Below, piece by piece: positions 2,669 through 47,858 of a stretch of DNA of 48,301 nucleotides. Positions within the stretch are counted from its first letter, which is position 1, and each line of letters begins with the position of its first letter. A model generated the notes under the pieces. That model saw only the letters and a list, made by a program, of their open reading frames with translations, did not search any database and was not told the DNA's origin. A program made the position numbers and the translations under genes. The stretch comes from Escherichia phage vB_ EcoD_Phleasolo. The stretch lies in the sequence record OL539447.1; one strand, 5' to 3'.

Positions 2669-3937
2669 ATGGTAAAAGCAGACAGCTACGCAAACATCTT
2701 TCTTAACGGGAGTGATGGTAGCGAGATTTACGGAAGGTTTGGCGGCCTTGGCTTAACAGCTCCAGCGCAGCTTGAGCAGCTTTACGTCAGTAGCGCACTG
2801 GTTCGTCGAATTATTGATATCGTGCCAGAGGTTGCACTTGGCGCTGGCTTTAACATTGAGGGTATCGACGATGAAGGTGCTTTCTGGTCGCGCTGGGATG
2901 ATTTAGACCTTTCAGATAGTGTAATCGACGCACTGGCGTGGGCAAGATTATACGGTGGAGCTGCTGTAGTGGCAATTGTCAAGGATGGCAGGGCGCTAAC
3001 TAGCCAGGTTAGGGAGGGAGCTGAACTTGAAACTATCCGCGTCTACGACCGACAGCAAATTAAGGTTCAGACTCGAGAGGAGAATCCACGTAACGCGCGA
3101 TTTGGAAAGCCAGTTACCTATCGCATTACGCCAAATGGTTCGGCCACATTCTACGACGTGCATTACACTCGCTGCCACATCATCGATGGCGAAAGGGTTC
3201 CGAACAACCTACGCCGCAACAACGATGGTTGGGGCGCAAGCGTGCTAACTGGTGACTTAATCGACGCGATTGACGACTATCAGAACTGTGAGAGACTGGC
3301 TACTCAGTTACTTCGTCGAAAGCAACAGGCTGTGTGGAAAGCGAAAGGTTTGGCTGATTTATGCGATGATTCTGATGGATTTGGTGCAGCTCGCTTACGC
3401 CTGGCGCAGGTTGATAATAACAGCGGCGTTGGTCAGGCTATTGGTATTGATGCAGAGAGTGAAGAATATGACGTTCTTAACTCTGACATTGGTGGTATTG
3501 ATGCATTCTTGAGCCAGAAGTTCGACAGAATCGTTGCCCTGAGCGGCATCCATGAAATCATTCTCAAGGCCAAGAATACTGGAGGTGTATCAGCTAGCCA
3601 AAACACAGCCCTTGAGACTTTCTATGGTTATGTTGACCGCAAGCGCAAGTCAGACCTGCTTCCTTTACTTGGTTTCCTGATTCAATTTATTGTCACTCAG
3701 GACGAATGGTCAGTTGAATTTAATCCACTATCTCAAGTTAGCGATAAAGATAAATCTGAGATTCTAGAGAAGAACGTTAACTCAGTTTCAGCTCTTGTTG
3801 CTGGTGGCGTGATGAATACTGATGAAGCCCGTGATACACTACGAGCTATTGCGCCAGAGGTTAAGCTGCAAGATGGTGATATTGAGCAAACCGCTCAGGG
3901 GAAAACAGTCGAGGAGGTAGTGATTAATGAAGAGTAA
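2669..3937 (+). CDS. portal protein
   Basis: 422-aa ORF directly after the terminase genes and before the scaffold-like gene; assigned by synteny and size. Confidence 0.55.
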   Translation: MVKADSYANIFLNGSDGSEIYGRFGGLGLTAPAQLEQLYVSSALVRRIIDIVPEVALGAGFNIEGIDDEGAFWSRWDDLDLSDSVIDALAWARLYGGAAVVAIVKDGRALTSQVREGAELETIRVYDRQQIKVQTREENPRNARFGKPVTYRITPNGSATFYDVHYTRCHIIDGERVPNNLRRNNDGWGASVLTGDLIDAIDDYQNCERLATQLLRRKQQAVWKAKGLADLCDDSDGFGAARLRLAQVDNNSGVGQAIGIDAESEEYDVLNSDIGGIDAFLSQKFDRIVALSGIHEIILKAKNTGGVSASQNTALETFYGYVDRKRKSDLLPLLGFLIQFIVTQDEWSVEFNPLSQVSDKDKSEILEKNVNSVSALVAGGVMNTDEARDTLRAIAPEVKLQDGDIEQTAQGKTVEEVVINEE

Positions 3938-5036
3938 AATGCGTTATGACAGCGCTAAAGTAAAAGCCCGTTTCGATGAGAACGGGTTTCTAGTGGACAC
4001 TCCAGTGGTTGCTCGTGTTGGTGTTCAAACATACTACATGCCAGATGGCTCAGAGCGCCGAGAGTTCCGACCAGCATCAGAGGTGTTTAAATCCGATTCC
4101 CTGCAAAGCTATCAGGGCAAGCCGCTTACGCTTGGTCATGTAGTTGTTAATTCAGATAACGCCAAGGATGTTGTAGTTGGAGCAGTATCTGGTGCAGCTA
4201 TGCGTCAGGATTCTACAGTTGTCGTTCCTCTAACAGTTTACGATAAGCAGGCAATAGAAAAGGCTAAGTCTGGCGTTGCTGGTGAGCTATCGGTTGGCTA
4301 TAACACTGTTGATATTGAGTCTCCTGGCTGGGGTAGTAACGAAACGGGTGAGTATAAGCTTGATGGAGAGTACGCAAGCCAGGATGATATCCCTGCTGAT
4401 TGGGTACGCTTTGATGCCCTGCAAACAAACATCGTTGTGAACCACATTGCTCTGGTATATAAAGGCCGCGCGCAAGTAGCTAAACTGAATCTGGACGCGG
4501 AACAGGAAAACCCGTATACTGATACCGTTCAATCAAATAAAGAGGATAAATTGATGATTAAGATTAAACTGGATGGCGAGCAGGAGTTCGAAATCGCCCC
4601 GGAAGTTGCTAAGCACATCGAAGCTGTTAAAGCTGATGCAGAACAGGCAAAAGCAAAAGCTGACACCCTTGAAGCTGAGCGTGACGCACTGAAAGCTAAA
4701 GTTGATGGCATTCCTGCTGAAATTGAATCTGCCGTAGCGAAAGCTAAAGCTGATGCTGACGAACTGGCCGCTCTGGTTGCTACCGCTGCAGAAGCTGGCG
4801 TTAAAGCTGATGGTATGGATGCTAAAGCAATCAAAGTTGCTTACGTTAAAGAAGTATCCGGCCTTGACGTTGCAGAGAAATCTGACGCATACATCGATGC
4901 GGCCTTTGATATCGCTAAAGATAGTGATAAAATGGCTGAAGTCCGCAAAGCAGTTGTTGCTGCGGATAAATCTGACGCTGCCGACGCGCCTAAGAAATTA
5001 GACCCGCGCGCTCGCCTCGCTAAATTGAAAAAATAA
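3927..5036 (+). CDS. head scaffolding / prohead maturation-like protein
   Basis: 369 aa; C-terminal half is an Ala/Lys/Glu-rich predicted coiled coil typical of scaffolding proteins; sits between portal and capsid genes. Confidence 0.4.
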   Translation: MKSKMRYDSAKVKARFDENGFLVDTPVVARVGVQTYYMPDGSERREFRPASEVFKSDSLQSYQGKPLTLGHVVVNSDNAKDVVVGAVSGAAMRQDSTVVVPLTVYDKQAIEKAKSGVAGELSVGYNTVDIESPGWGSNETGEYKLDGEYASQDDIPADWVRFDALQTNIVVNHIALVYKGRAQVAKLNLDAEQENPYTDTVQSNKEDKLMIKIKLDGEQEFEIAPEVAKHIEAVKADAEQAKAKADTLEAERDALKAKVDGIPAEIESAVAKAKADADELAALVATAAEAGVKADGMDAKAIKVAYVKEVSGLDVAEKSDAYIDAAFDIAKDSDKMAEVRKAVVAADKSDAADAPKKLDPRARLAKLKK

Positions 5037-5047
5037 GGAGTCTTAAT

Positions 5048-5518
5048 ATGGCAATTCGTCGTCAAGCTACTGCTGGTATGGTTGCAGATACCTCTCTGTA
5101 CAATATCGATGGTGCCTGTGTAATGTCTACCGGCGTAGTCCAGGGTGTCGGTTATGCTGTTGGTGTCGGTTCTGTTGATGCTGATGGTCACAAAGTTCTG
5201 ATTTCCGCTGTTGCTGATAACGTATACGGCGTCCTGGTGAAGTCACACTACGAAAGCCCGCGTGGTTCTTACGGTGGTGTTGTTGGTAACATTGATAACT
5301 TCCAGGTCGCAAACGTAATGACTCACGGTCGCATCTGGATGGTTACCGGCCTTCCTTCTGCTCCTGCATTTGGTAGTGCTGTTACCATTGATACTAATGG
5401 TTCCGCAACAAGCGGCGGCGCAGTCACTACCAACTGGACCTTCGCCGGTGGTTTCCAGGCAGCTGACACTGTGTCTGGCGAACCAGCACTGGTTGAAGTT
5501 CAGGTTATTCAGAAATAA
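5048..5518 (+). CDS. Gly/Val-rich capsid-associated protein (decoration-like)
   Basis: 156-aa ORF with AGGAG RBS in the head module; function inferred from position only. Confidence 0.3.
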   Translation: MAIRRQATAGMVADTSLYNIDGACVMSTGVVQGVGYAVGVGSVDADGHKVLISAVADNVYGVLVKSHYESPRGSYGGVVGNIDNFQVANVMTHGRIWMVTGLPSAPAFGSAVTIDTNGSATSGGAVTTNWTFAGGFQAADTVSGEPALVEVQVIQK

Positions 5519-5535
5519 TTAGCAAAGCTAAACTA

Positions 5536-5559
5536 AACCTCCTCCGGGAGGTTTTTTTA
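5536..5559 (+). terminator. rho-independent terminator
   Basis: ACCTCC-TCCG-GGAGGT hairpin plus T7 run; near-identical copies at 6900 and 12870. Confidence 0.7.
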
Positions 5560-5602
5560 TGCCTGTAAACTGGTACAATTAGTTTCACTTTAAATCGGAG
5601 GA

Positions 5603-6895
5603 ATGAAAATGGCTAGCTTCTTGGAATTGGTAAGAGATAACATTGATAAGGGTTTAGCGACAATGCAGCCCGTTCAGTTATCAACTGAGTTTACTGCAAT
5701 TAAAGAGATTAGGGTAGCAACATCAATCACCACGCCACAAACAATATCAAGGAGTGATGAAACAAAGCTAATGTATACAACTTACGGGCTTGCTAACGTA
5801 GCTGGTGGTTCATACACAGGACAATCGCCAAACGGAGTCCAGATGAAGGTTGAGTTTATGACTGACTCAACTTTGTTCGAAATCAAAACCATCGGCTCAA
5901 TCGGCACTTACTCAATTTTTATTGACGGCAAACTGGTAAATGCTGATGCATTCGCTACGCCAAATGGAGAGGCGGTGAGCTGGATGCAAGTTAAAGCTAA
6001 TGACGGAGTTATCAGCGGGAAACTTCGACACGTTGAAATCTACGGCATCAACTCAGCATTCGGAGCCTTCGTGTTTGGTGCTGGCGACACGGTTAGTCGT
6101 GAAATCTCAATCAAGCGCCCGCTTATTTATCAGATGGGTGATAGTTATACTTATGGAACTGGTGCTGGATTCAGGACTCAAGCTTACGGCTCATCTCCTG
6201 CCGTAAATGACTTCTATGCATTCACCAGGTCTCTTGGTTTTGATGGTATTGCTGAAGGAATTGGTGGATCAGGATGGAACTCAGCTGCCGGTCAGTATCC
6301 AATGTCTCGCGTGCAAACAAGGCTTGCAAAGCTAAATCGCAAGCCGTCAGTTATCTCCTGGGCGCTTGGATATAATGATGCCGCTGCCATCCTGACTGGA
6401 ACAAATAGCCAAAAGCTACTAGTTTCGATGGGTGAGTGTCTCGCTGAGACTAGGAAGGTTTATAGTGACGTTCCAATCATCCAGATTAGCAGCGCAACGC
6501 CGAAGGGAATTACCACTGGAATTCAGAAGGTAATTGATTTGGTTAATGGTTTTTGTTCTGATAACGACATTCCAGTAATTAACATAAGTAGCTATGTTAC
6601 TAATGCTAACTCGGCAATTTATACAGGAACAGACAACGTTCACCCGGGAACTCTTGGCCATGAGTTTAGGGGAATGGCAATGGCTCGCGAGGTTCTGCTT
6701 GCAGCCTCGGGTCAGAAATCACTAACAGTCCCAGTTACGCCGCGTGCATTTAACGTGGTAGCAAGGCTGACTAAAAGTTTTGGAGTTACAATCTTCTCTG
6801 GTGTAGTAAATGCTATTGATGAGAATGATGTTGCCGGACAGCTATACTTGCAGACTGGTGCTCGAGTGGAAATTCTCTCAGTATCTCGCGCCTAA
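5603..6895 (+). CDS. SGNH/GDSL hydrolase-domain protein (esterase/deacetylase-like)
   Basis: 430 aa; C-terminal domain carries a GDS block (YQMGDSYTYGTG) and a DxxH block (DNVHPGTLGH); own TGGTACAAT extended -10 and flanking terminators. Confidence 0.55.
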   Translation: MKMASFLELVRDNIDKGLATMQPVQLSTEFTAIKEIRVATSITTPQTISRSDETKLMYTTYGLANVAGGSYTGQSPNGVQMKVEFMTDSTLFEIKTIGSIGTYSIFIDGKLVNADAFATPNGEAVSWMQVKANDGVISGKLRHVEIYGINSAFGAFVFGAGDTVSREISIKRPLIYQMGDSYTYGTGAGFRTQAYGSSPAVNDFYAFTRSLGFDGIAEGIGGSGWNSAAGQYPMSRVQTRLAKLNRKPSVISWALGYNDAAAILTGTNSQKLLVSMGECLAETRKVYSDVPIIQISSATPKGITTGIQKVIDLVNGFCSDNDIPVINISSYVTNANSAIYTGTDNVHPGTLGHEFRGMAMAREVLLAASGQKSLTVPVTPRAFNVVARLTKSFGVTIFSGVVNAIDENDVAGQLYLQTGARVEILSVSRA

Positions 6896-6899
6896 TATC

Positions 6900-6923
6900 A
6901 AACCTCCTTCGGGAGGTTTTTTA
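6900..6923 (+). terminator. rho-independent terminator
   Basis: ACCTCC-TTCG-GGAGGT hairpin plus T run. Confidence 0.7.
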
Positions 6924-6976
6924 TTGCTCTTTTTCTGTTAGACTGTCAATGATTATTAACCAATCAGGAGATAAAG

Positions 6977-8488
6977 ATGGCTTACACAGAAATTGCTATG
7001 GCGGTAGGGAATTCACCTGAAATCTTAGCCAGGAACGTAAAAATGATGATGTCATCTGGATTTCAGCCATATGGTGACGTCCAGATGCTAAGCGGCACTC
7101 TCTTTGGCATGAAAATGGCCAAGGGAACAGCAAACAACGTTGAAGACTTTATGGTGACATCCGACACCACAGTTCAGGGATTGATTAACAGGGTTAACCG
7201 ATATCTTTTGCAGGGCTGGAAAAGGTTTGGCAATGCTCACTTTGAGGATGGAGCATATCTTTCAGCACTTGCGAAAGGTGATTTTGTAAGTGATGAAGAC
7301 GGAGGCTCAGGTGAAGCAGGCCCACAAGGTCCGATTGGTCCACAGGGTCCAGCAGGTCCCGCAGGCGCAGCTGGTCCGCAAGGTCCTCAAGGTCCAACTG
7401 GTGCAACTGGCCCAGCGGGTGCGGCAGGTGCTAAAGGTGACACTGGCCCACAAGGTCCGGCAGGTCCGCAAGGTCCTCAAGGTGAAACTGGCGAGGCTGG
7501 TCCATAGGGTCCTATCGGCCCAACGGGCGCCACAGGTCCGGCTGGCCCAAAAGGTGATAAAGGTGATGCAGGCCCAGTTGGCCCGGCAGGATTAACTTTC
7601 CGCGGGATGTACGACGCAGCTACTGCTTACGTTAAAGATGATGTGGTTACATTCAATAACTCTAGCTGGTTTGCTACCGCCGCTGTGACCGGAGAGAATC
7701 CAGATGTTAGCGATTCCTGGGAGTTGCTGGCCGCGCAGGGCGCTCCAGGTCCGCAAGGCGCAACTGGTCCAGCAGGCCCAACTGGCCCGGCAGGCCCTGC
7801 AGGTATTCAGGGACCTCAGGGAGAGAGAGGGCTTCATGGTGAGCAAGGTCCGTCAGGCCCGCAAGGCTTGCAAGGTGCAGCTGGTCCAGTTGGACCTCAA
7901 GGCCCAGCAGGTCCTCAGGGTGAGCGAGGAATACAGGGTCCGGTTGGCCCTCAAGGATTGCAGGGTGTAAAAGGTGATCCAGGCGTTAATTCTACATATA
8001 CACTACCTTTAAAAAACTACCTTGTAATAGCCCTTAATGAAGAGGAGGGGGCGAGGCAGACATTCAGGGTGCCAGAAGACAGTTCGGGAGCTGAAATAGC
8101 TTTTGTGGTCAGAAATAAAGATTCTTCAAACACTTCACCATCTGGAGTTTATGAGCTGGGATGTGGAGTGACTGGTACGGCTTCAATGCACTTTTCAGGT
8201 TGGATTATTAGTAACCTTAACCAACCAGATAAAATAAGATCAGCCTCTATGCTAATTGCTTCCATGACTAATAGTCAGCGATACTTTACGCAGTTAGCAA
8301 TAGGAACAAGGGGTGATCTTTTTAAAGGTTGCTTAACCAATCAGGAAACTGGTGAGCTATGGTACATTGAGGCTTTTGGTACCAAGCCAAGAGGGGCAGG
8401 GCAAACCGACTTAGGTAGACTCTCAGTTAAGATTGAGAAAAGAGTTGATACAGTAGTTGGAAGCTTAACAAAATTCCCAAGAGTTTAA
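6977..8488 (+). CDS. collagen-like (Gly-X-Y repeat) protein with a globular C-terminal domain, interrupted by an in-frame TAG at 7505-7507
   Basis: Two same-frame ORFs (6977-7507 and 7607-8488) separated only by one TAG; Gly-X-Y repeats (GPQGPAGP...) run through the stop in perfect register. Confidence 0.6.
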
Positions 8489-8528
8489 GCTTTGCTCAAG
8501 GATGAGCACCCATGCATTGATATAGCTA

Positions 8529-8556
8529 TTGTCCCAATCGAAATCTCGTGTATAAT
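8529..8556 (+). promoter_or_regulatory. sigma70-like promoter with extended -10 (TTGTCC-N16-TG-TATAAT)
   Basis: Hexamers read directly from sequence upstream of the capsid gene. Confidence 0.45.
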
Positions 8557-8594
8557 TGACACGTAAACTCATAAACAAAAGGATGCATCTTAAT

Positions 8595-9542
8595 ATGACT
8601 ATCAAACTTGACGCTTTCGAGCAAGAAAAGATTACTAACCACCTGCGCGCTATGGGTGTTGATAAGGCTGATGCGGCTGGTATCTGGACTGTTAAGCAGC
8701 TCACCGCAAGCCTGAATAAAGCTTACGAAACCGAGTACGACCAGAACTCCGTAGTAAATCTGTTCCCTGTAAGTAATGAAATCCCTGGCTACGCTAAATA
8801 TTTTGAGTATCCGGTATTTGATGGCGTAGGTATTGCTCAGATCGTAGCTGATTACACTGATGACCTGCCGCTGGTTGATGCCTTGGCAACTGAACGTCAG
8901 GGTAAAGTTTTCCGCTTCGGTAACGCTTTCCTGATTTCCATTGATGAAATTAAAGTTGGTCAAGCTACCGGTCAGTCTCTGTCTACTCGCAAGCAGTCTC
9001 TTGCTTTCGAAGCTCACGACAAGCTTCTTGATAAACTGGTGTGGTCCGGCTCTACTGCTCACGGCATCCCTAGCGTTTTCGACTACCCGAACATCAACAA
9101 CGTTGTTAGCGCTGGCTCATGGTCTCAGCCAACTACTGCGGTAAGTGATATTACAAGTCTCTTGGATATTATCGAGACTTCAACCAATGGTCAGCACCGT
9201 GCGACTCACCTGCTTCTGCCTACTACCGCTCGTCGTATCATGCAGAACCTGGTACCTGGCACTTCTGTTAGCTACGGTGAATTCTTCCGTCAGAACAATA
9301 GCGGCGTAACAGTTGAGTTCGTTCAGTACCTGAATGATTACAATGGTTCTGGCACCTCTGCAGCTATCGCTTATGAGAAAGACCCTAACAACATGGCAAT
9401 CGAGATTCCGGAAGCGACTAACGCACTGCCGGCTCAGCCGCGCGACTTGCACTTCCGTGTTCCGGTAACTTCTAAAGCAACTGGCTTGATCGTGTATCGT
9501 CCTTTGACCATGGCTGTAATGAAAGGCATCACCTTCGCGTAA
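8595..9542 (+). CDS. major capsid protein
   Basis: 315 aa from the ATG at 8595 (ORF track opens at 8556); strong promoter upstream and strong terminator downstream, central in the head module; start choice uncertain. Confidence 0.6.
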   Translation: MTIKLDAFEQEKITNHLRAMGVDKADAAGIWTVKQLTASLNKAYETEYDQNSVVNLFPVSNEIPGYAKYFEYPVFDGVGIAQIVADYTDDLPLVDALATERQGKVFRFGNAFLISIDEIKVGQATGQSLSTRKQSLAFEAHDKLLDKLVWSGSTAHGIPSVFDYPNINNVVSAGSWSQPTTAVSDITSLLDIIETSTNGQHRATHLLLPTTARRIMQNLVPGTSVSYGEFFRQNNSGVTVEFVQYLNDYNGSGTSAAIAYEKDPNNMAIEIPEATNALPAQPRDLHFRVPVTSKATGLIVYRPLTMAVMKGITFA

Positions 9543-9565
9543 TAGCAATTATTGCTTACCACTTG

Positions 9566-9590
9566 CCACCCTTCGGGGTGGTATTTTTGT
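9566..9590 (+). terminator. rho-independent terminator
   Basis: CCACCC-TTCG-GGGTGG hairpin plus T run immediately after the capsid gene. Confidence 0.7.
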
Positions 9591-9634
9591 TTATATGACT
9601 ATATAATCAAACAATCGAAACAAAGGAGGAAAGA

Positions 9635-12553: not shown

Positions 12554-12870
12554 AGCGCGCAGTATATCTACAATACCAAAGAGAGCCAACGGACGCCGAA
12601 CTTGAAGCTATTGGCATGCGGCGTTCCGATTATGAAGATGAAGAGCCAGAGGAGTTATACTTCGATGATGACATGATGCTGGCATGGACTGTTTACCAGG
12701 CAACTTCAACTCAATGGCGTGTAGGTATGAACGGCGCTACCGGAATAGATTATTCAGTACTCCCTTTCCTCTTTGATGTGTATAATGTCAAGGACAAAGA
12801 GATGACTTTAAATGACTTGCGAATACTGGAGTGCAAAGCACTTGAGATGATGCAAGTAAGGCAAAAATAA
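12511..12870 (+). CDS. tail assembly chaperone -1 frame extension (G-T-like; expressed only by frameshift)
   Basis: The -1 frame is open from 12511 and overlaps the last 43 nt of the upstream ORF; no SD before the internal ATG at 12616; AAAG slip-prone site at 12544-12547. Confidence 0.35.
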   Translation, partial: RLHASSGGPARKGLKRAVYLQYQREPTDAELEAIGMRRSDYEDEEPEELYFDDDMMLAWTVYQATSTQWRVGMNGATGIDYSVLPFLFDVYNVKDKEMTLNDLRILECKALEMMQVRQK

Positions 12871-12894
12871 CCTCCCTTTGTGGAGGTTTTTTTA
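12870..12894 (+). terminator. rho-independent terminator (possibly partial)
   Basis: ACCTCC-CTTTGT-GGAGGT hairpin plus T run, directly before the tape measure start. Confidence 0.5.
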
Positions 12895-12904
12895 TGGAGG
12901 TTAC

Positions 12905-15883
12905 ATGGCAGAATTTGCAGGTATCACTCTTGGCGTTGACGTTCGCCAGGTTGACCAGGGCACAAAGTCCCTGCAAGAATTTAAACGTGCCAATGAGCAG
13001 GCTGCGGCTGGTGTTAGCGAATTTGTTAACGCTGAGCTAGTTGCGAAGAATCAGGCTCGCGATACTGCCAGATATCTTTCTGAGCAGCGAACTGCTTTCC
13101 GTCAGCTGCAAACCGCAATCGACCCAACGGCAGGAAAACTTCGCAAACTACAGGAAGCGGCTGACGCACTGGATAAATCCTTCTCCGCAGGAGTTGTTCC
13201 TGAGGCTGAATTCTACCGCTTAAGCGAGGCTCTTGAGACTCAGACTAACAGGCTTCGCAACTCACAGCGCGCATTGACTGAGGAAGGCAGGGCGGCAATT
13301 GAGGCATCAAAAGCCAAGGCTCAGGCAGCTACACAGGCGGAAAGATTCCTTAAGTCTTTGCAGGCTGAAGCTCAGGCGGCAACATTAACGCGAGAGGAGC
13401 TGTTAAAGCTCAGGGCTGCTGAGTTAGGAGTCTCAAGCCAGGCTGCGCCAATTATTGCACAAATCGGAGCAGCAGCTGACCAGTCCGCAGCGGCATTAAC
13501 AAGGCAGAGCCAGGCTTTGCAACGTTCCGGGCTATCTGTTGGCGCATATAAGAACGCAATACGCACACTTCCGGCGCAGATTACAGATATTGGAACCTCA
13601 TTGGCTGGCGGCATTCCAATCTGGTTAATTGCAATTCAGCAGGGTGGCCAGATTAAGGATAGCTTTGGTGGTGTAGCTAACACATTCAGGTTTGCGCTTG
13701 CTGCATTAAACCCGTTCGTTGTTGCAGCTGGAGCTCTCGGTGTTGCTCTTGGTGCTCTTGGGCTATCAGCTTATCAGGCTTATCAGAACACATCACAGCT
13801 AAACCAGACGCTTACCCTGACCGGGCAATCAGCGAACTTATCAGCTGCAGCGGTTCAGAACCTAGCAAGGAATGCTGCTGAAGCTGCCGGAGCTACTCAG
13901 GGTTTAGGCCAGGAAATTGCTAATGGATTGGTCGCAAGTGGAAACCGCACGGTAGCTCAGATTTCAATTATCACTGAGGCAACTGCGCGCTGGGCTACGG
14001 TTACTGGTGATTCAGCTGACGATATCGTCAAGAACTTCGATAAAATCGCAAATGACCCGGTCAAAGGGCTGGCTGAGCTTGATAAGCAGTTTAATTTCTT
14101 AACCGCTGGTCAACTTAAGTACATCGAGCAGATTAGGGTTACAGAGGGTCAAACTCAAGCTGTAACGGCCGCCACGAAAATATTTGCTGATGTGATGGAG
14201 AATCGCTTAACCAAAGTTGCAGAGTCGCTAACGCCGCTTGAGAGGGCTTGGGATAGCTTCAAAAACTTCGTTTCTCGGGTTTGGACAGATATCGGGAACA
14301 GAACGCTTGGCGCGCTAAACCTAATTGTAGACGTTGTTGCTGGCACTATTGAGCAGATTCAGTTTCTGATTGGTCAGGGTGACGTTCTTATCAACAACTT
14401 CCTGATATCGACAATCAAAGCATTCCAGAATATCCCTGGCGCTGATGGAGTTGGTAGTGAGTTGGTTCAGCAATTTGAGAAGCAAAACGAAGGGATAAAG
14501 AAAGCTAACGAGGAGTTAGTTAAGTCAGTAGCTGAGCGTGACGCAAGGATTCGTAAGGGTGAGCTTGGTTATGTCACCTCAACTCAGGAGGAGCAGCAAA
14601 GGAATGGAGAATCTGACGCTGAGTTCGAGAAACGCAGAAAGTCACGTGAGCAGGAACTTAAAGATATTGAGGCAGCGAATAAGGCAAGGAAGACTGGAGT
14701 TAAGGACCAGCAAGACCTTACTATCAACTATGAGTCAGGCGTCTTAGCTCTACAGGCTCAGCTTAAGGTTCTTCAGGAACACCGCCAGATTAGTGATGTC
14801 ATCAGTAACGAGCGAAAGCAGCTGTTCGCAGAAGAAGCAAGGTTTGCAATCCTTAATGAAAGGCTGGCTGATGGCACTATCACCAAACAGCAAAGGGCGT
14901 TACTGCTACAGCAAGATAAAATCTTAGGACTGGCTCGTGAGAAAGCTGAGATTGGTGACCAGATTGTTCTGCAGGAAAGGGCCAATAAACTCCTTGATGA
15001 TAACATCAAGAAGACTCGCCAGATTAACGCTGAAGCAGTATCAATAAGTGTTGGCGCTGGATTATCTCAGCGCGAAGCTGAAAGGAAGCGAGAGTTGGCG
15101 GCGCTAGAAGCCCAGCAGATTTCTAAAGGCGGCTCCGTAGATGACACTGACTTCCAAGCATTGTTGCAGGCTCGTCAGAATTTCTACAATCAGGAAGACG
15201 CATTACGTGGCAACTGGTTGGCTGGTGTTAAGTCTGCGTTTGCTGAGACGGCTGATGAATTAGCAAACTTCAATCAGATTGGTTCTGAATTGGCAATGAG
15301 TGCCTTCAATGGATTGACTGACCAGATTACAAACCTGGTTACTACCGGAGAGGCAAACTTTAAAGAGTTTACCGCTTCAATTCTGAAGCAGATTGCACGC
15401 ATTGCAACGCAATTACTTTTGATTAAAGCTATTGAGTCAACCATATCTAGTTTTGGTGGTGGCGGCGGCTCAACAGGTACAGCTATAGCTAACTTTGGTA
15501 AATCTTTTGGCTTTGCATCTGGTGGCTACACAGGTAGTGGTGGTAAGTACGAGCCAGCTGGCACGGTGCATAAAGGTGAATTCGTATTTACTAAAGAGGC
15601 AACCTCAAGGATTGGCGTTGATAACCTTTACAAGTTGATGCGCGGATACGCAAACGGTGGGGTGGTTGGCTCTGGTCCTGGCTATGCGACTGGTGGACTT
15701 GTTGGTGGAAGCAACGTTAACGTTGGTGGAGTGAATGTTACCGTTCAGACAGGTCTTGGCGGTGGTGGCGGCAATGACGCTAAACAGTTAGAATCTGGTA
15801 TCAGGGTTATCATCGCGGAAGAGATTACTCAATCTTTCCAGCAGGGCGGAACGGCTTACCAGTTCTTGCGTGGTTACAGTTAA
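12905..15883 (+). CDS. tail tape measure protein
   Basis: 992 aa from ATG 12905 (track start 12878 is a TTG inside the terminator); long coiled-coil region, hydrophobic segments and Gly-rich C-terminus. Confidence 0.85.
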   Translation: MAEFAGITLGVDVRQVDQGTKSLQEFKRANEQAAAGVSEFVNAELVAKNQARDTARYLSEQRTAFRQLQTAIDPTAGKLRKLQEAADALDKSFSAGVVPEAEFYRLSEALETQTNRLRNSQRALTEEGRAAIEASKAKAQAATQAERFLKSLQAEAQAATLTREELLKLRAAELGVSSQAAPIIAQIGAAADQSAAALTRQSQALQRSGLSVGAYKNAIRTLPAQITDIGTSLAGGIPIWLIAIQQGGQIKDSFGGVANTFRFALAALNPFVVAAGALGVALGALGLSAYQAYQNTSQLNQTLTLTGQSANLSAAAVQNLARNAAEAAGATQGLGQEIANGLVASGNRTVAQISIITEATARWATVTGDSADDIVKNFDKIANDPVKGLAELDKQFNFLTAGQLKYIEQIRVTEGQTQAVTAATKIFADVMENRLTKVAESLTPLERAWDSFKNFVSRVWTDIGNRTLGALNLIVDVVAGTIEQIQFLIGQGDVLINNFLISTIKAFQNIPGADGVGSELVQQFEKQNEGIKKANEELVKSVAERDARIRKGELGYVTSTQEEQQRNGESDAEFEKRRKSREQELKDIEAANKARKTGVKDQQDLTINYESGVLALQAQLKVLQEHRQISDVISNERKQLFAEEARFAILNERLADGTITKQQRALLLQQDKILGLAREKAEIGDQIVLQERANKLLDDNIKKTRQINAEAVSISVGAGLSQREAERKRELAALEAQQISKGGSVDDTDFQALLQARQNFYNQEDALRGNWLAGVKSAFAETADELANFNQIGSELAMSAFNGLTDQITNLVTTGEANFKEFTASILKQIARIATQLLLIKAIESTISSFGGGGGSTGTAIANFGKSFGFASGGYTGSGGKYEPAGTVHKGEFVFTKEATSRIGVDNLYKLMRGYANGGVVGSGPGYATGGLVGGSNVNVGGVNVTVQTGLGGGGGNDAKQLESGIRVIIAEEITQSFQQGGTAYQFLRGYS

Positions 15884-47675: not shown

Positions 47676-47751
47676 GTTCTGTTAGTGTAAGTGGACAGCA
47701 CGAAGACCTCCTAAGTCTTAGGTACTGGTTCAAGTCCAGTGCGGAACGCCA
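47676..47751 (+). tRNA. tRNA-Arg (anticodon CCT)
   Basis: Hand-folded cloverleaf: acceptor GTTCTGT/GCGGAAC (two G-U pairs), D stem GTGT/GCAC with GG loop, anticodon stem AAGAC/GTCTT with loop CT-CCT-AA, T arm ACTGG-TTCAAGT-CCAGT, encoded CCA. Confidence 0.7.
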
Positions 47752-47756
47752 AATAT

Positions 47757-47858
47757 GCTCACGTTGCTAATGTTGGCCTAAGGGTGGAGCTTATACCTCC
47801 ATAAAGCAATCACCAGATAAGTGATGTAACGCAGGTTCGATTCCTGCCGTGAGCACCA
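47757..47858 (+). tRNA. tRNA-like element, non-canonical length (identity unresolved)
   Basis: Canonical T arm GCAGG-TTCGATT-CCTGC, 3' CGTGAGC-A-CCA and a perfect complementary GCTCACG 102 nt upstream; two internal 5-bp hairpins; no clean D arm. Confidence 0.3.

Follow-up and report, generated by a model that had tools for sequence, protein, structure and literature searches.

Layout of the head-operon interval that contains the esterase gene

The window, which is the whole 48,301-nucleotide stretch of DNA that was analysed, comes from a T1-like member of the Drexlerviridae, and the genes and junction elements mapped between 5048 and 8488 lie on its plus strand. The esterase gene occupies positions 5609 to 6895 and encodes 428 amino acids followed by a stop codon. 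The longest open reading frame listed at this position is slightly longer (5603 to 6895, 430 amino acids), and the first-pass annotation had described its product as a 430-aa SGNH/GDSL protein; the SGNH fold is borne out by Pfam, the AlphaFold model and Foldseek, but the length is not. The ATG at 5609 is almost certainly the true start because a GGAGGA ribosome-binding site (5597 to 5602) lies 6 nt upstream of it, and because the ATG at 5603 is replaced by AAG in the related phages Sf12 and Sd1, both of which keep the GGAGGA. The GenBank annotation likewise begins at 5609. An extended -10 promoter element, TGGTACAAT, was read at 5571 to 5579, 12 nt past the T-run of the preceding hairpin and 30 nt ahead of the start codon, with no recognisable -35. 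This agrees with the earlier claim that the gene has an extended -10 of its own. The position of the putative element is conserved across divergent relatives, and we infer that it functions as the promoter of the esterase gene.

Upstream of the esterase gene lies a gene for a 156-aa capsid cement/decoration protein (5048 to 5518), which matches the Pfam families Phage_cement (PF22758; E217 gp24/Pam3 gp6) at E 6.2e-22 and XM1_gp53_minor_capsid at E 1.1e-12, and which is found directly 5′ of a variable slot in 11 of the 11 loci compared. The downstream flank is a collagen-like fibre gene (6977 to 8488), whose product has collagen repeats (E 1e-12 and 5e-15, Pfam) and, at its N-terminus, a DUF1737 domain that is present in 7/7 orthologues (best E 6.9e-8). 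The gene order portal, protease, cement, SGNH, (collagen-like), major capsid protein is maintained in all 11 carriers examined. The esterase gene had been placed between scaffold and capsid genes; it does belong to the head module, between the cement and major capsid genes, but the upstream gene encodes a cement protein and not a scaffold, and the immediate flanks are the cement and collagen-like genes. The collagen-like gene is a single frame interrupted by an in-frame amber codon (TAG, 7505 to 7507) that stands where Sf12 has CAG. A phage-encoded amber suppressor was considered and rejected, because one of the two tRNAs is Arg-CCU and the anticodon loop of the other is of GAU type.

Near-identical terminators on either side of the gene had been proposed at first pass, and two UUCG-type hairpins are indeed present. 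At the left junction, the terminator scan placed AAACCTCC-UCCG-GGAGGUUU plus seven T at 5535 to 5558, the hairpin itself (5535 to 5554; AAACCTCC-TCCG-GGAGGTTT in DNA, then T7) having a folding energy of -15.2 kcal/mol (z = -3.4). The right junction terminator, AAACCTCC-UUCG-GGAGGUUU plus six T, was found at 6900 to 6922 by the scan and by a pattern search, and its hairpin (6900 to 6919; AAACCTCC-TTCG-GGAGGTTT, then T6) folds at -14.3 kcal/mol (z = -4.5). With at most one mismatch allowed, the pattern AACCTCCNNNNGGAGGTT occurs at exactly 2 sites in the 48.3 kb, compared with 0 in 100 shuffles. The third copy reported at 12870 did not survive this comparison: a hairpin exists there (12869 to 12888), but its 7-bp stem and 6-nt loop are only loosely similar and fall outside the pattern, its stability is no better than that of shuffles (z = -1.3), and it lies between the tape-measure chaperone and tape-measure genes, which together rule it out as a further cassette boundary.

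The combination of hairpin and promoter-like element is not exclusive to the esterase gene. A motif, TGNTANNNT, follows the hairpin T-run by 12-19 nt at 17/17 junctions (11 loci, 7 sequence variants), against a chance expectation of 0.09 per 55 nt. In the window, the downstream collagen-like gene is preceded by the extended -10-like element TGTTAGACT (6936 to 6944), which is identical in C119, Sf12, Sd1, AugustePiccard and the two further loci L012 and L013. The junction is repeated along the variable slot that separates the cement gene from the major capsid gene; as judged from sequence, every slot gene, the major capsid gene included, has its own terminator/promoter junction.

Presence, absence and exchange of the esterase gene

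Among 144 related phage records with a cement homologue, about 10 (~7%) carry the esterase gene. It is missing in C119, phiKP26, Rogue1, phiJLA23 and JK06, which align across the region, and in these SGNH-less relatives a single hairpin occupies precisely the site at which the window has a hairpin, the gene and a second hairpin, the latter arrangement also being found in Sf12, Sd1 and AugustePiccard. In C119, the gap between the cement and collagen-like genes measures 93 nt and contains a single hairpin, the counterpart of the left hairpin of the window. Because the relatives that lack the gene keep exactly one hairpin at the site, the esterase gene is a true indel cassette. The synteny comparison suggested at first pass, which could have revealed a universally conserved core head gene, instead finds a gene of sporadic occurrence.

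The contents of the slot vary independently in the loci compared, with the SGNH gene alone, the collagen-like gene alone, both, or additional ORFs, and the same insertion site is used in two subfamilies, Rogunavirinae and Braunvirinae. The hairpin is ~90-100% conserved between phages whose flanking proteins are 50-75% identical, and the boundaries of the indel coincide with it. Exchange extends to parts of the gene. When P0020 and P0021 are compared with AugustePiccard, the enzyme part shows 44-46% identity and the C-terminal domain 87-96%, and this discordance requires recombination.

These features invite comparison with the morons of lambdoid phages, which Juhala and colleagues are said to have described in 2000, and with the promoter/stem-loop cassettes (PeSLs) that, according to what Arbiol and colleagues reportedly found in 2010, flank mobile ORFs in T4-type phages. 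Shared with both are an extra gene between genes that are adjacent in relatives, a promoter and terminator of its own and a flanking repeat usable as recombination homology. In the window, however, the host phage is virulent, the composition is not atypical and the junction is ordered terminator then promoter; its repeat is common to the structural genes of one slot, whereas the PeSL repeat serves hypothetical early ORFs. Because that phage is virulent, prophage expression of the esterase gene, and with it a role in lysogenic conversion, is excluded. Measured against what defines a moron, absence from close relatives with adjacent flanking genes is observed (for example in C119), and a dedicated promoter and factor-independent terminator are present at the level of sequence. 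Deviating nucleotide composition, which is frequent in morons and not obligatory, was not seen in a G+C comparison of the gene (0.42-0.49) with its flanks (0.43-0.51), and, with no G+C anomaly, a foreign origin judged by composition was rejected. The first-pass description of a moron-like autonomous cassette therefore holds for the duplicated terminators, the indel and the promoter-like element, but the gene is not uniquely autonomous, since all slot genes have such junctions.

Domain architecture and active site

The AlphaFold model of the esterase (mean pLDDT 84.4, pTM 0.82) is a compact three-domain monomer with no predicted tail-adaptor or trimeric fibre region. According to the model, the protein consists of a jelly-roll, an SGNH core with the shape of family-2 carbohydrate esterases (CE2) and a private C-terminal domain of 60 aa. 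The secondary structure of the model places an N-terminal helix (aa 4-13) and a beta-sandwich jelly-roll (to about aa 165) in 5609 to 6103. The SGNH catalytic domain (aa 170-366; 6116 to 6706) carries G177-D178-S179, G220, N256-D257 and D342-x-x-H345, and it is followed by a beta-beta-alpha-beta domain (aa 379-427; 6743 to 6889) that is private to Drexlerviridae proteins and is a candidate attachment module.

The HMM search recommended with the first-pass annotation places the catalytic domain firmly in the superfamily, with matches over aa 174-353 to Lipase_GDSL_2 (E 5.5e-11, 43.7 bits against a curated cut-off of 32.9) and Lipase_GDSL (E 3.2e-8, 34.4 bits against 23.6). The catalytic-block residues, including Ser179, Gly220, Asn256, Asp342 and His345, do not vary among 18 homologues of 35-76% identity or in a second homologue set. 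The fold is a three-layer alpha/beta/alpha flavodoxin-like one, and Foldseek assigns it a probability of 1.00 to many solved SGNH esterases, among them TAP (5tic, target TM 0.73) and the CE3 enzyme 2vpt. The sequence and model are best explained by a catalytically active SGNH-superfamily serine esterase, whose activity would most likely be the removal of O-acetyl groups from polysaccharide.

In the PDB, the closest structures belong to two-domain CE2-type esterases and to acetyl-xylan esterases, the CE2-type enzymes being the best matches (E 4e-11 to 5e-9, target TM 0.44-0.66). CtCE2 (2wab/2wao), CjCE2 (2waa/2w9x), Est2A and SsfX3 have the same layout of an N-terminal beta-sandwich and a C-terminal SGNH domain. 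In Foldseek, the jelly-roll and SGNH domains together align to the CE2 enzymes 2wab, 2wao, 2waa and 4xvh and to SsfX3 and Est2A, with 353-395 alignment columns spanning both domains of 2wab, 2wao, 2waa, 2w9x and 4xvh. The jelly-roll alone aligns to the CBM35 modules 2w3j and 2w46 and so resembles a carbohydrate-binding module, although it has no Pfam match; PF17996 (CE2_N) gives none even at E 10, and matches the homologous protein of phage CC31 only at E 0.06. Sequence identity to CE2 enzymes is only 11-17%, and the phage protein differs from them in its extra C-terminal domain. It also keeps the Asp of the classical Ser-His-Asp triad (D342, invariant), whereas CE2 enzymes reportedly use a Ser-His dyad, as Montanier and colleagues are said to have described in 2009. 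The phage esterase thus resembles CE2 in architecture and is not filed as a CE2 member. A role as a peptidoglycan O-acetylesterase was considered unlikely, given that matches to Ape1 are much weaker than those to CE2, that no signal peptide is evident and that O-acetylated peptidoglycan is not known from E. coli or Klebsiella. No N-terminal hydrophobic segment was seen in the sequence when judged by eye, hence there is no obvious signal peptide, which argues against a secreted periplasmic role.

Proposed capsid display and the alternatives to it

We modestly favour the view that the esterase is an optional accessory module in a "decoration slot" of the T1-like phage head operon, most likely on the outer capsid surface. 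An optional esterase among capsid genes is an interesting arrangement and one with precedent. In Karamvirus CC31, the protein CC31p007 has an enzyme core about 34% identical to the window protein over query aa 27-355, and its N-terminus (aa 9-75) matches residues 294-361 of T4 Hoc, the capsid-binding domain, at 43% identity (E 1e-16). The 511-aa second "Hoc" of PG7 is the same Hoc-GDSL fusion, as noted by Fokine et al. 2023 (PMC10385173). These Karamvirus proteins share the homologous jelly-roll and SGNH core and are likewise products of an extra, non-essential gene of an Enterobacteriaceae phage. They have the Hoc domain at the N-terminus, lack the 60-aa C-terminal domain and are encoded in an early-gene setting beside 39.1 and 60+39, whereas the window esterase has a private C-terminal domain, no Hoc domain and a place in the head operon; capsid location is predicted for both. 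The window protein and CC31p007 both belong to PHROG 9703, labelled "head decoration" (E 7e-128 for the window protein). This label is an annotation transfer from Hoc-like fusions.

Direct experimental precedent for the proposed display mechanism is provided by the NanS-p sialate O-acetylesterase gp84 of Stx phage phi24B, which cryo-EM places at hexon centres, anchored by DUF1737 (bioRxiv 10.64898/2026.04.10.717836). Like the predicted window enzyme, gp84 is a carbohydrate O-acetylesterase with a jelly-roll partner encoded in the late region. It differs in its catalytic family (SASA/NanS type), in having its own N-terminal DUF1737, in being proteolytically processed and in coming from phi24B, a temperate podovirus whose capsid is T=9. 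The DUF1737 of the window is found on the neighbouring collagen-like protein and is absent from the esterase. Together, the Hoc fusion in CC31/PG7, the DUF1737 of the neighbour and the phi24B precedent make capsid display plausible. The place of the gene, with cement on one side and major capsid protein on the other, also speaks for a capsid location.

Profile and sequence searches recognised neither a Hoc domain nor DUF1737 in the esterase. The C-terminal domain (aa 368-428) matched nothing in PHROGs or Pfam, only the same gene in tblastn against phages, and only spurious designed TIM barrels in a PDB profile search. An exhaustive profile search of 1.84 billion representatives returned its own family and four repetitive proteins, which were judged spurious (5-12 short stretches each), and comparison with the DUF1737-like N-terminus of the collagen-like protein led us to reject a similarity between the two. 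A Mantel rho of 0.42 for co-variation of the domain with the cement or capsid protein stems from a single clade of three near-identical phages. Beyond that clade there are counter-examples, such as AugustePiccard and IME542, which share 95% of the capsid protein and 43% of the C-terminal domain, so a specific cement or capsid partner is unsupported. The literature searched contained no virion proteomics or cryo-EM for any carrier, including Sf12, Sd1, AugustePiccard and IME542.

A soluble, non-structural late esterase would fit several of these observations. Such an enzyme, freed at lysis, would strip O-acetyl groups from polysaccharide on debris and neighbouring cells, either destroying decoy receptors that would otherwise trap the progeny or unmasking the receptors of the next host, and its place in the head operon would reflect late timing only. 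The lack of a recognisable anchor domain and of co-variation with capsid proteins is consistent with this, as are the gene's own putative promoter and terminators, which would uncouple its dosage from that of the structural genes, and the homologue in the T7-like phage Peggy, which adjoins lysis genes (spanin and endolysin) and counts against a capsid location. We nevertheless consider a free enzyme rather unlikely, because all other identified slot genes are capsid-related (cement, DUF1737-collagen fibre, major capsid protein), the homologous Karamvirus core is fused to a capsid-binding domain, and it is hard to see what a free protein would do with a conserved, independently exchanged C-terminal domain and a conserved N-terminal helix.

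The virion might also carry the esterase on its tail or neck, where it would deacetylate O-antigen or capsule at adsorption in the manner of the SGNH tailspikes and fibres of G7C-like phages, N4-like phages and actinophages. The first-pass annotation had stated that phage SGNH esterases are typically virion-associated, and this applies chiefly to tail proteins: in BFVD, the viral proteins structurally closest to the enzyme core mostly carry tail fibre or minor tail annotations (Clavibacter CN1A, Gordonia, Klebsiella Sin4, Pseudomonas POR1), and an SGNH hydrolase found in the phiPsa374 virion is annotated as a tail fibre (PMC9796965). These neighbours count against a capsid location. In every carrier, however, the gene lies 5′ of the major capsid gene and is separated from the downstream tail tube gene by about 4 kb and some nine genes, the model lacks any predicted adaptor or fibre region, and the Karamvirus fusion has a capsid anchor and not a tail anchor, which makes a tail position improbable. 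Most improbable, in our judgement, is that the hairpins are ordinary terminators alike by chance and that the gene is an ancestral, immobile head-operon gene lost in some lineages. The common site in two subfamilies would fit such an ancestry, and since the G+C content matches that of the flanks, nothing marks the gene as foreign. Against it stand the rarity of the gene, a hairpin conserved beyond the flanking proteins with coincident indel boundaries, and the recombination needed to explain discordant domain similarities. Loss and gain through the repeat are one mechanism in two directions, and this account differs from the best explanation mainly in polarity.

Under the preferred reading of an accessory module on the capsid surface, the esterase gene would form its own small transcription unit, made up of the preceding gene's terminator, the extended -10, the ribosome-binding site, the ORF and a second UUCG-loop terminator. 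The shared junction would set a separate expression level for each slot gene, and it most likely provides the short homology that lets phages acquire, lose and swap modules. In the protein, the jelly-roll would pack on the catalytic domain as in family-2 carbohydrate esterases, and we suggest the lineage-specific termini as the means of attachment to the capsid, be it the 60-aa C-terminal domain, the N-terminal helix or both. The capsid-borne enzyme would then modify glycans, from the host or the environment, that the virion encounters before its tail engages the receptor.

A capsid-borne esterase would place T1-like coliphages alongside T4-like phages (predicted) and phi24B (shown) as phages that use the head, and not only the tail, as a platform for glycan enzymes. 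This would bear on phage passage through capsule, O-antigen, biofilm matrix and gut mucus, and on host-range differences among otherwise near-identical therapeutic phages. In that case, the conserved junction and the small exchangeable C-terminal domain would also be of practical use in engineering cargo display on Drexlerviridae capsids. Should the esterase not be on the capsid, what remains is a common kind of accessory esterase gene within the late operon of a phage. A broader reading is possible, and we offer it tentatively: the UUCG-hairpin/extended -10 junction may define a Drexlerviridae plug-in slot for exchanging capsid-surface cargo, in which the C-terminal domain would be an unrecognised capsid-binding module and the esterase a receptor-destroying, glycan-editing capsid enzyme whose core was independently given a Hoc anchor in T4-like phages. 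The cargo of such a slot would comprise small ORFs, the O-acetylesterase and a collagen fibre that is anchored by DUF1737 and has a hypervariable tip, and the haemagglutinin-esterases of influenza C and coronaviruses would be an analogue of the capsid enzyme.

An SGNH gene bounded by duplicated hairpins

The SGNH gene (5609-6895, plus strand) lies in the order terminase large subunit, small virion protein, portal, DUF2213 protease, 156-aa cement protein, SGNH gene, collagen-like gene and major capsid protein. The first-pass annotation placed it between scaffold and capsid genes, but the 156-aa upstream neighbour matches Pfam Phage_cement (E217 gp24/Pam3 gp6; E 6e-22) and is therefore a cement/decoration protein rather than a scaffold. 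The likely start is ATG 5609, with GGAGGA 6 nt upstream; Sf12 and Sd1 both lack the ATG found at 5603. This shortens the annotated 430-aa protein to 428 aa, while the reading frame and its SGNH/GDSL assignment hold, as Lipase_GDSL_2 (E 5.5e-11) and Lipase_GDSL (E 3.2e-8) both exceed curated cut-offs. GenBank already labels the gene SGNH/GDSL hydrolase, and the PHROGs label, 'head decoration', is transferred from Hoc-like fusions and rests on no experiment. In phage IME542 (3390-3735), the esterase is annotated as 347 aa from an internal ATG, with intact N-terminal coding sequence upstream that begins with ATT where relatives have ATG; the ATT is either a rare start codon or a mutated one, or else an error in sequencing. 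Two database homologues (P0016 and P0017) are the IME542 protein but appear under Nitratidesulfovibrio and Fibrobacter, apparently because phage DNA contaminates those assemblies.

The near-identical terminators described around the gene were both recovered by a terminator scan: AAACCTCC-TCCG-GGAGGTTT followed by T7 at 5535 (-15.2 kcal/mol, z -3.4) and AAACCTCC-TTCG-GGAGGTTT followed by T6 at 6900 (-14.3 kcal/mol, z -4.5). Their common pattern occurs exactly twice in the window and in 0 of 100 shuffles, and the extended -10, TGGTACAAT, is present upstream of the gene at 5571-5579 as described. A proposed third copy near 12870 is unrelated to the cassette, having only the CCTCC/GGAGG arms in common, a 6-nt loop and a stability not above that of shuffled sequence. 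This terminator-like hairpin (AACCTCC-CTTTGT-GGAGGTT plus T7; 12869-12905) sits in the gap that separates the tape-measure chaperone frame from the tape-measure start codon (ATG 12905), where a second GGAGG just upstream is the ribosome-binding site; it might attenuate tape-measure expression.

Over positions 5000-9600 the window matches Klebsiella phage vB_KpnD_Opt-79 at 100% identity (OL539453.1; 48,301 bp; Drexlerviridae, Rogunavirinae), and the genome of that phage is the same sequence rotated by 616 bp. Two near-identical records, Opt-719 and Sadiya, are also identical there. The records OL539453, OL539451 and OL539467 (48,301-48,303 bp; 100% identical across the 4.6 kb compared) were deposited with different hosts, Klebsiella pneumoniae, E. 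coli and Serratia marcescens, indicating either an unusually broad host range or one phage recovered repeatedly. By megablast, the alignments with Sf12 and Sd1 cover the region in full, esterase gene included, whereas C119, phiKP26, Rogue1, phiJLA23 and JK06 align on both sides and lack the SGNH gene. C119 has 93 nt between its cement and collagen genes, with a single hairpin copy in that interval, whose left flank matches the window's left junction and whose right flank matches the right junction; the boundaries of the indel are thus the duplicated hairpin itself. The esterase gene is a genuine indel cassette. Rather than being a universally conserved core head gene, it is sporadic, found in only ~10 of 144 phage records carrying a cement homologue, and its carriers span Rogunavirinae (Opt-79, Sf12, Sd1) and Braunvirinae (AugustePiccard, IME542); the site is the same in every one.

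A conserved junction in a variable decoration slot

We compared the slot between the cement and major capsid genes across 11 loci, comprising the window, five GenBank phages and five metagenomic contigs. The hairpin RCCTCC-TTCG-GGAGG-T(5-7) precedes the esterase in 10/10 gene-carrying loci, counting one degenerate copy (contig L014), and also lies 3' of it whenever another accessory gene is next; loci in which the capsid gene is the immediate 3' neighbour have another hairpin there. The TGNTANNNT motif occurs 12-19 nt past the T-run at 17/17 junctions, which are not independent samples, in seven sequence variants, against 0.09 per 55 nt expected from its window-wide frequency. The motif and its placement are nevertheless retained where the 5'-UTR sequences have diverged. 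A conserved promoter at 8529-8556 (TTGTCC-16-TATAAT with TGTATAAT), near-identical in all relatives, belongs to the major capsid gene alone; a separate hairpin lies upstream of it, and the gene has a strong 3' terminator at 9564-9583. The recurrence of these junctions across loci, together with the capsid gene's own TGTATAAT element, argues that the slot is a series of small putative terminator-promoter-gene units.

Slot content ranges from the collagen gene only (C119) or the esterase only (IME542 and contig L011) to both (window, Sd1, AugustePiccard), with extra 165-280-aa ORFs and a DUF1353 gene in Sf12 and contigs L012-L015. A second accessory ORF family of 174-187 aa, without a match in a Pfam search, is found in Sf12 (3521-4082) and two metagenomic phages (L012, 4345-4919; L013, 1093-1694), in each case with the cement gene on one side and the esterase gene on the other. 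The hairpin preceding these ORFs is always another UUCG type, GGCCC-TTCG-GGGCC, as though every kind of module came with a terminator of its own.

The proposal of a moron-like autonomous cassette is borne out in part. Absent from relatives and carrying its own predicted promoter and terminator, the cassette qualifies as a moron operationally, although the esterase unit is no more autonomous than its slot neighbours. It is not compositionally atypical, with no foreign G+C signature in the slot, and its host phage is virulent. In T4-type phages, mobile ORFs are flanked by promoter/stem-loop cassettes, which the repeated regulatory junction resembles. We consider a conserved junction organising a variable decoration slot modestly new.

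Esterase architecture and an exchangeable C-terminal domain

The residues G177-D178-S179, G220, N256-D257 and D342-x-x-H345 are invariant in 18 homologues (35-76% identity), from which the enzyme should be active. An AlphaFold model (pLDDT 84, pTM 0.82) divides into three parts: a beta-sandwich preceded by a helix at the N-terminus (to ~aa 165), an SGNH domain at aa 170-366 and a domain of beta-beta-alpha-beta topology at aa 379-427. Among solved structures, the best neighbours cover the first two parts; these are family-2 carbohydrate esterases (CE2; 2wab, 2wao, 2waa, 2w9x, 4xvh), SsfX3 and the acetyl-xylan esterase Est2A. Taken by itself, the N-domain is similar to CBM35 modules. The CE2_N profile does not match the esterase, so membership in CE2 is unsupported by sequence and the protein is CE2-like in architecture only. 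The most reasonable predicted activity is that of a polysaccharide O-acetylesterase.

Two stretches are lineage-specific, the first 26 residues and a 60-aa domain at the C-terminus. The latter has no detectable relatives outside the esterase family among 1.84 billion representative proteins, no profile or PDB sequence match, and weak, generic structural matches; by hhalign it is unrelated to the DUF1737-type domain. Two homologues (P0020 and P0021) are 87-96% identical to AugustePiccard in this domain but only 44-46% in the enzyme part, whereas the window and AugustePiccard share 64-65% in the enzyme part and only 27-30% in the domain. From these identities, it clearly behaves as an independent evolutionary module. 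Which type a phage has does not follow its cement or capsid protein, and so points to no particular partner. This private exchangeable domain is likewise modestly new.

Placement of the esterase and its collagen-like neighbour

We put display on the capsid at about an even chance, on the basis of slot position, homology to Karamvirus cargo, and the phi24B precedent with its DUF1737 counterpart next door. Every other identifiable slot gene is capsid-related. The jelly-roll and SGNH core is common to Karamvirus T4-like phages (34% identity, PHROG 9703), and residues 9-75 of the CC31 protein align at 43% identity (pairwise E 1e-16) with residues 294-361 of T4 Hoc, described as the conserved capsid-binding domain (Fokine et al. 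2023, PMC10385173). The same study noted a 511-residue PG7 protein with this domain N-terminal and a GDSL domain C-terminal. Karamviruses with the fusion also keep canonical Hoc, and the two would compete for one hexon-centre site; the fusion gene (3437-4972 in CC31) has early genes (39.1, 60+39) as neighbours and is well removed from the canonical hoc locus. In Stx phage phi24B, the NanS-p esterase gp84 decorates hexon centres via DUF1737, as established by proteomics and cryo-EM (bioRxiv 10.64898/2026.04.10.717836).

Unlike the CC31 and PG7 enzymes, however, the window's esterase lacks a Hoc domain, and DUF1737, which gp84 carries itself, is here on the collagen-like protein. With neither anchor on the enzyme, it could instead be a soluble late enzyme, which we consider rather unlikely. 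A tail or neck location is more doubtful still, even though most viral structural neighbours of the enzyme core carry tail annotations. The literature searched yielded no virion proteomics for any esterase carrier. Capsid-displayed esterases are now precedented, and the window's enzyme is an uncharacterised addition to proteins of a known type.

The collagen-like gene (6977-8488) is one reading frame with a single in-frame amber TAG at 7505-7507, and its GenBank annotation as two 'putative DNA polymerase' CDS is wrong. The TAG (GEAGP*GPIG) is present in all three near-identical records; Sf12 has CAG/Gln there, and relatives have one gene of 477-525 aa. In a supE (Gln-inserting) host the wild-type protein would be made, whereas without suppression the product would be only the DUF1737 anchor and ~70 aa of collagen. 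DUF1737 lies at the N-terminus in 7/7 orthologues (best E 6.9e-8), the window's copy scoring 23.8 bits against a cut-off of 24. The region spans ~100 aa (window 6977-7291; orthologues in loci L002-L004, L012, L013 and L015) and looks like two tandem copies (GWQPYG ... QGWxxFG). The conserved N-terminus, collagen stalk and hypervariable C-terminal knob (18-30% identity between close relatives), with a weak CBM_5_12 match, suggest that the protein is a head fibre anchored to the capsid and not a tail fibre. The window has two neighbouring tRNA genes, of which the first (47676-47751) is tRNA-Arg(CCU). In the second (47757-47858), a 33-nt insertion interrupts the D-loop region and ARAGORN assigns no anticodon; its anticodon loop in the Rfam alignment, CAGAUAA, suggests GAU (Ile).
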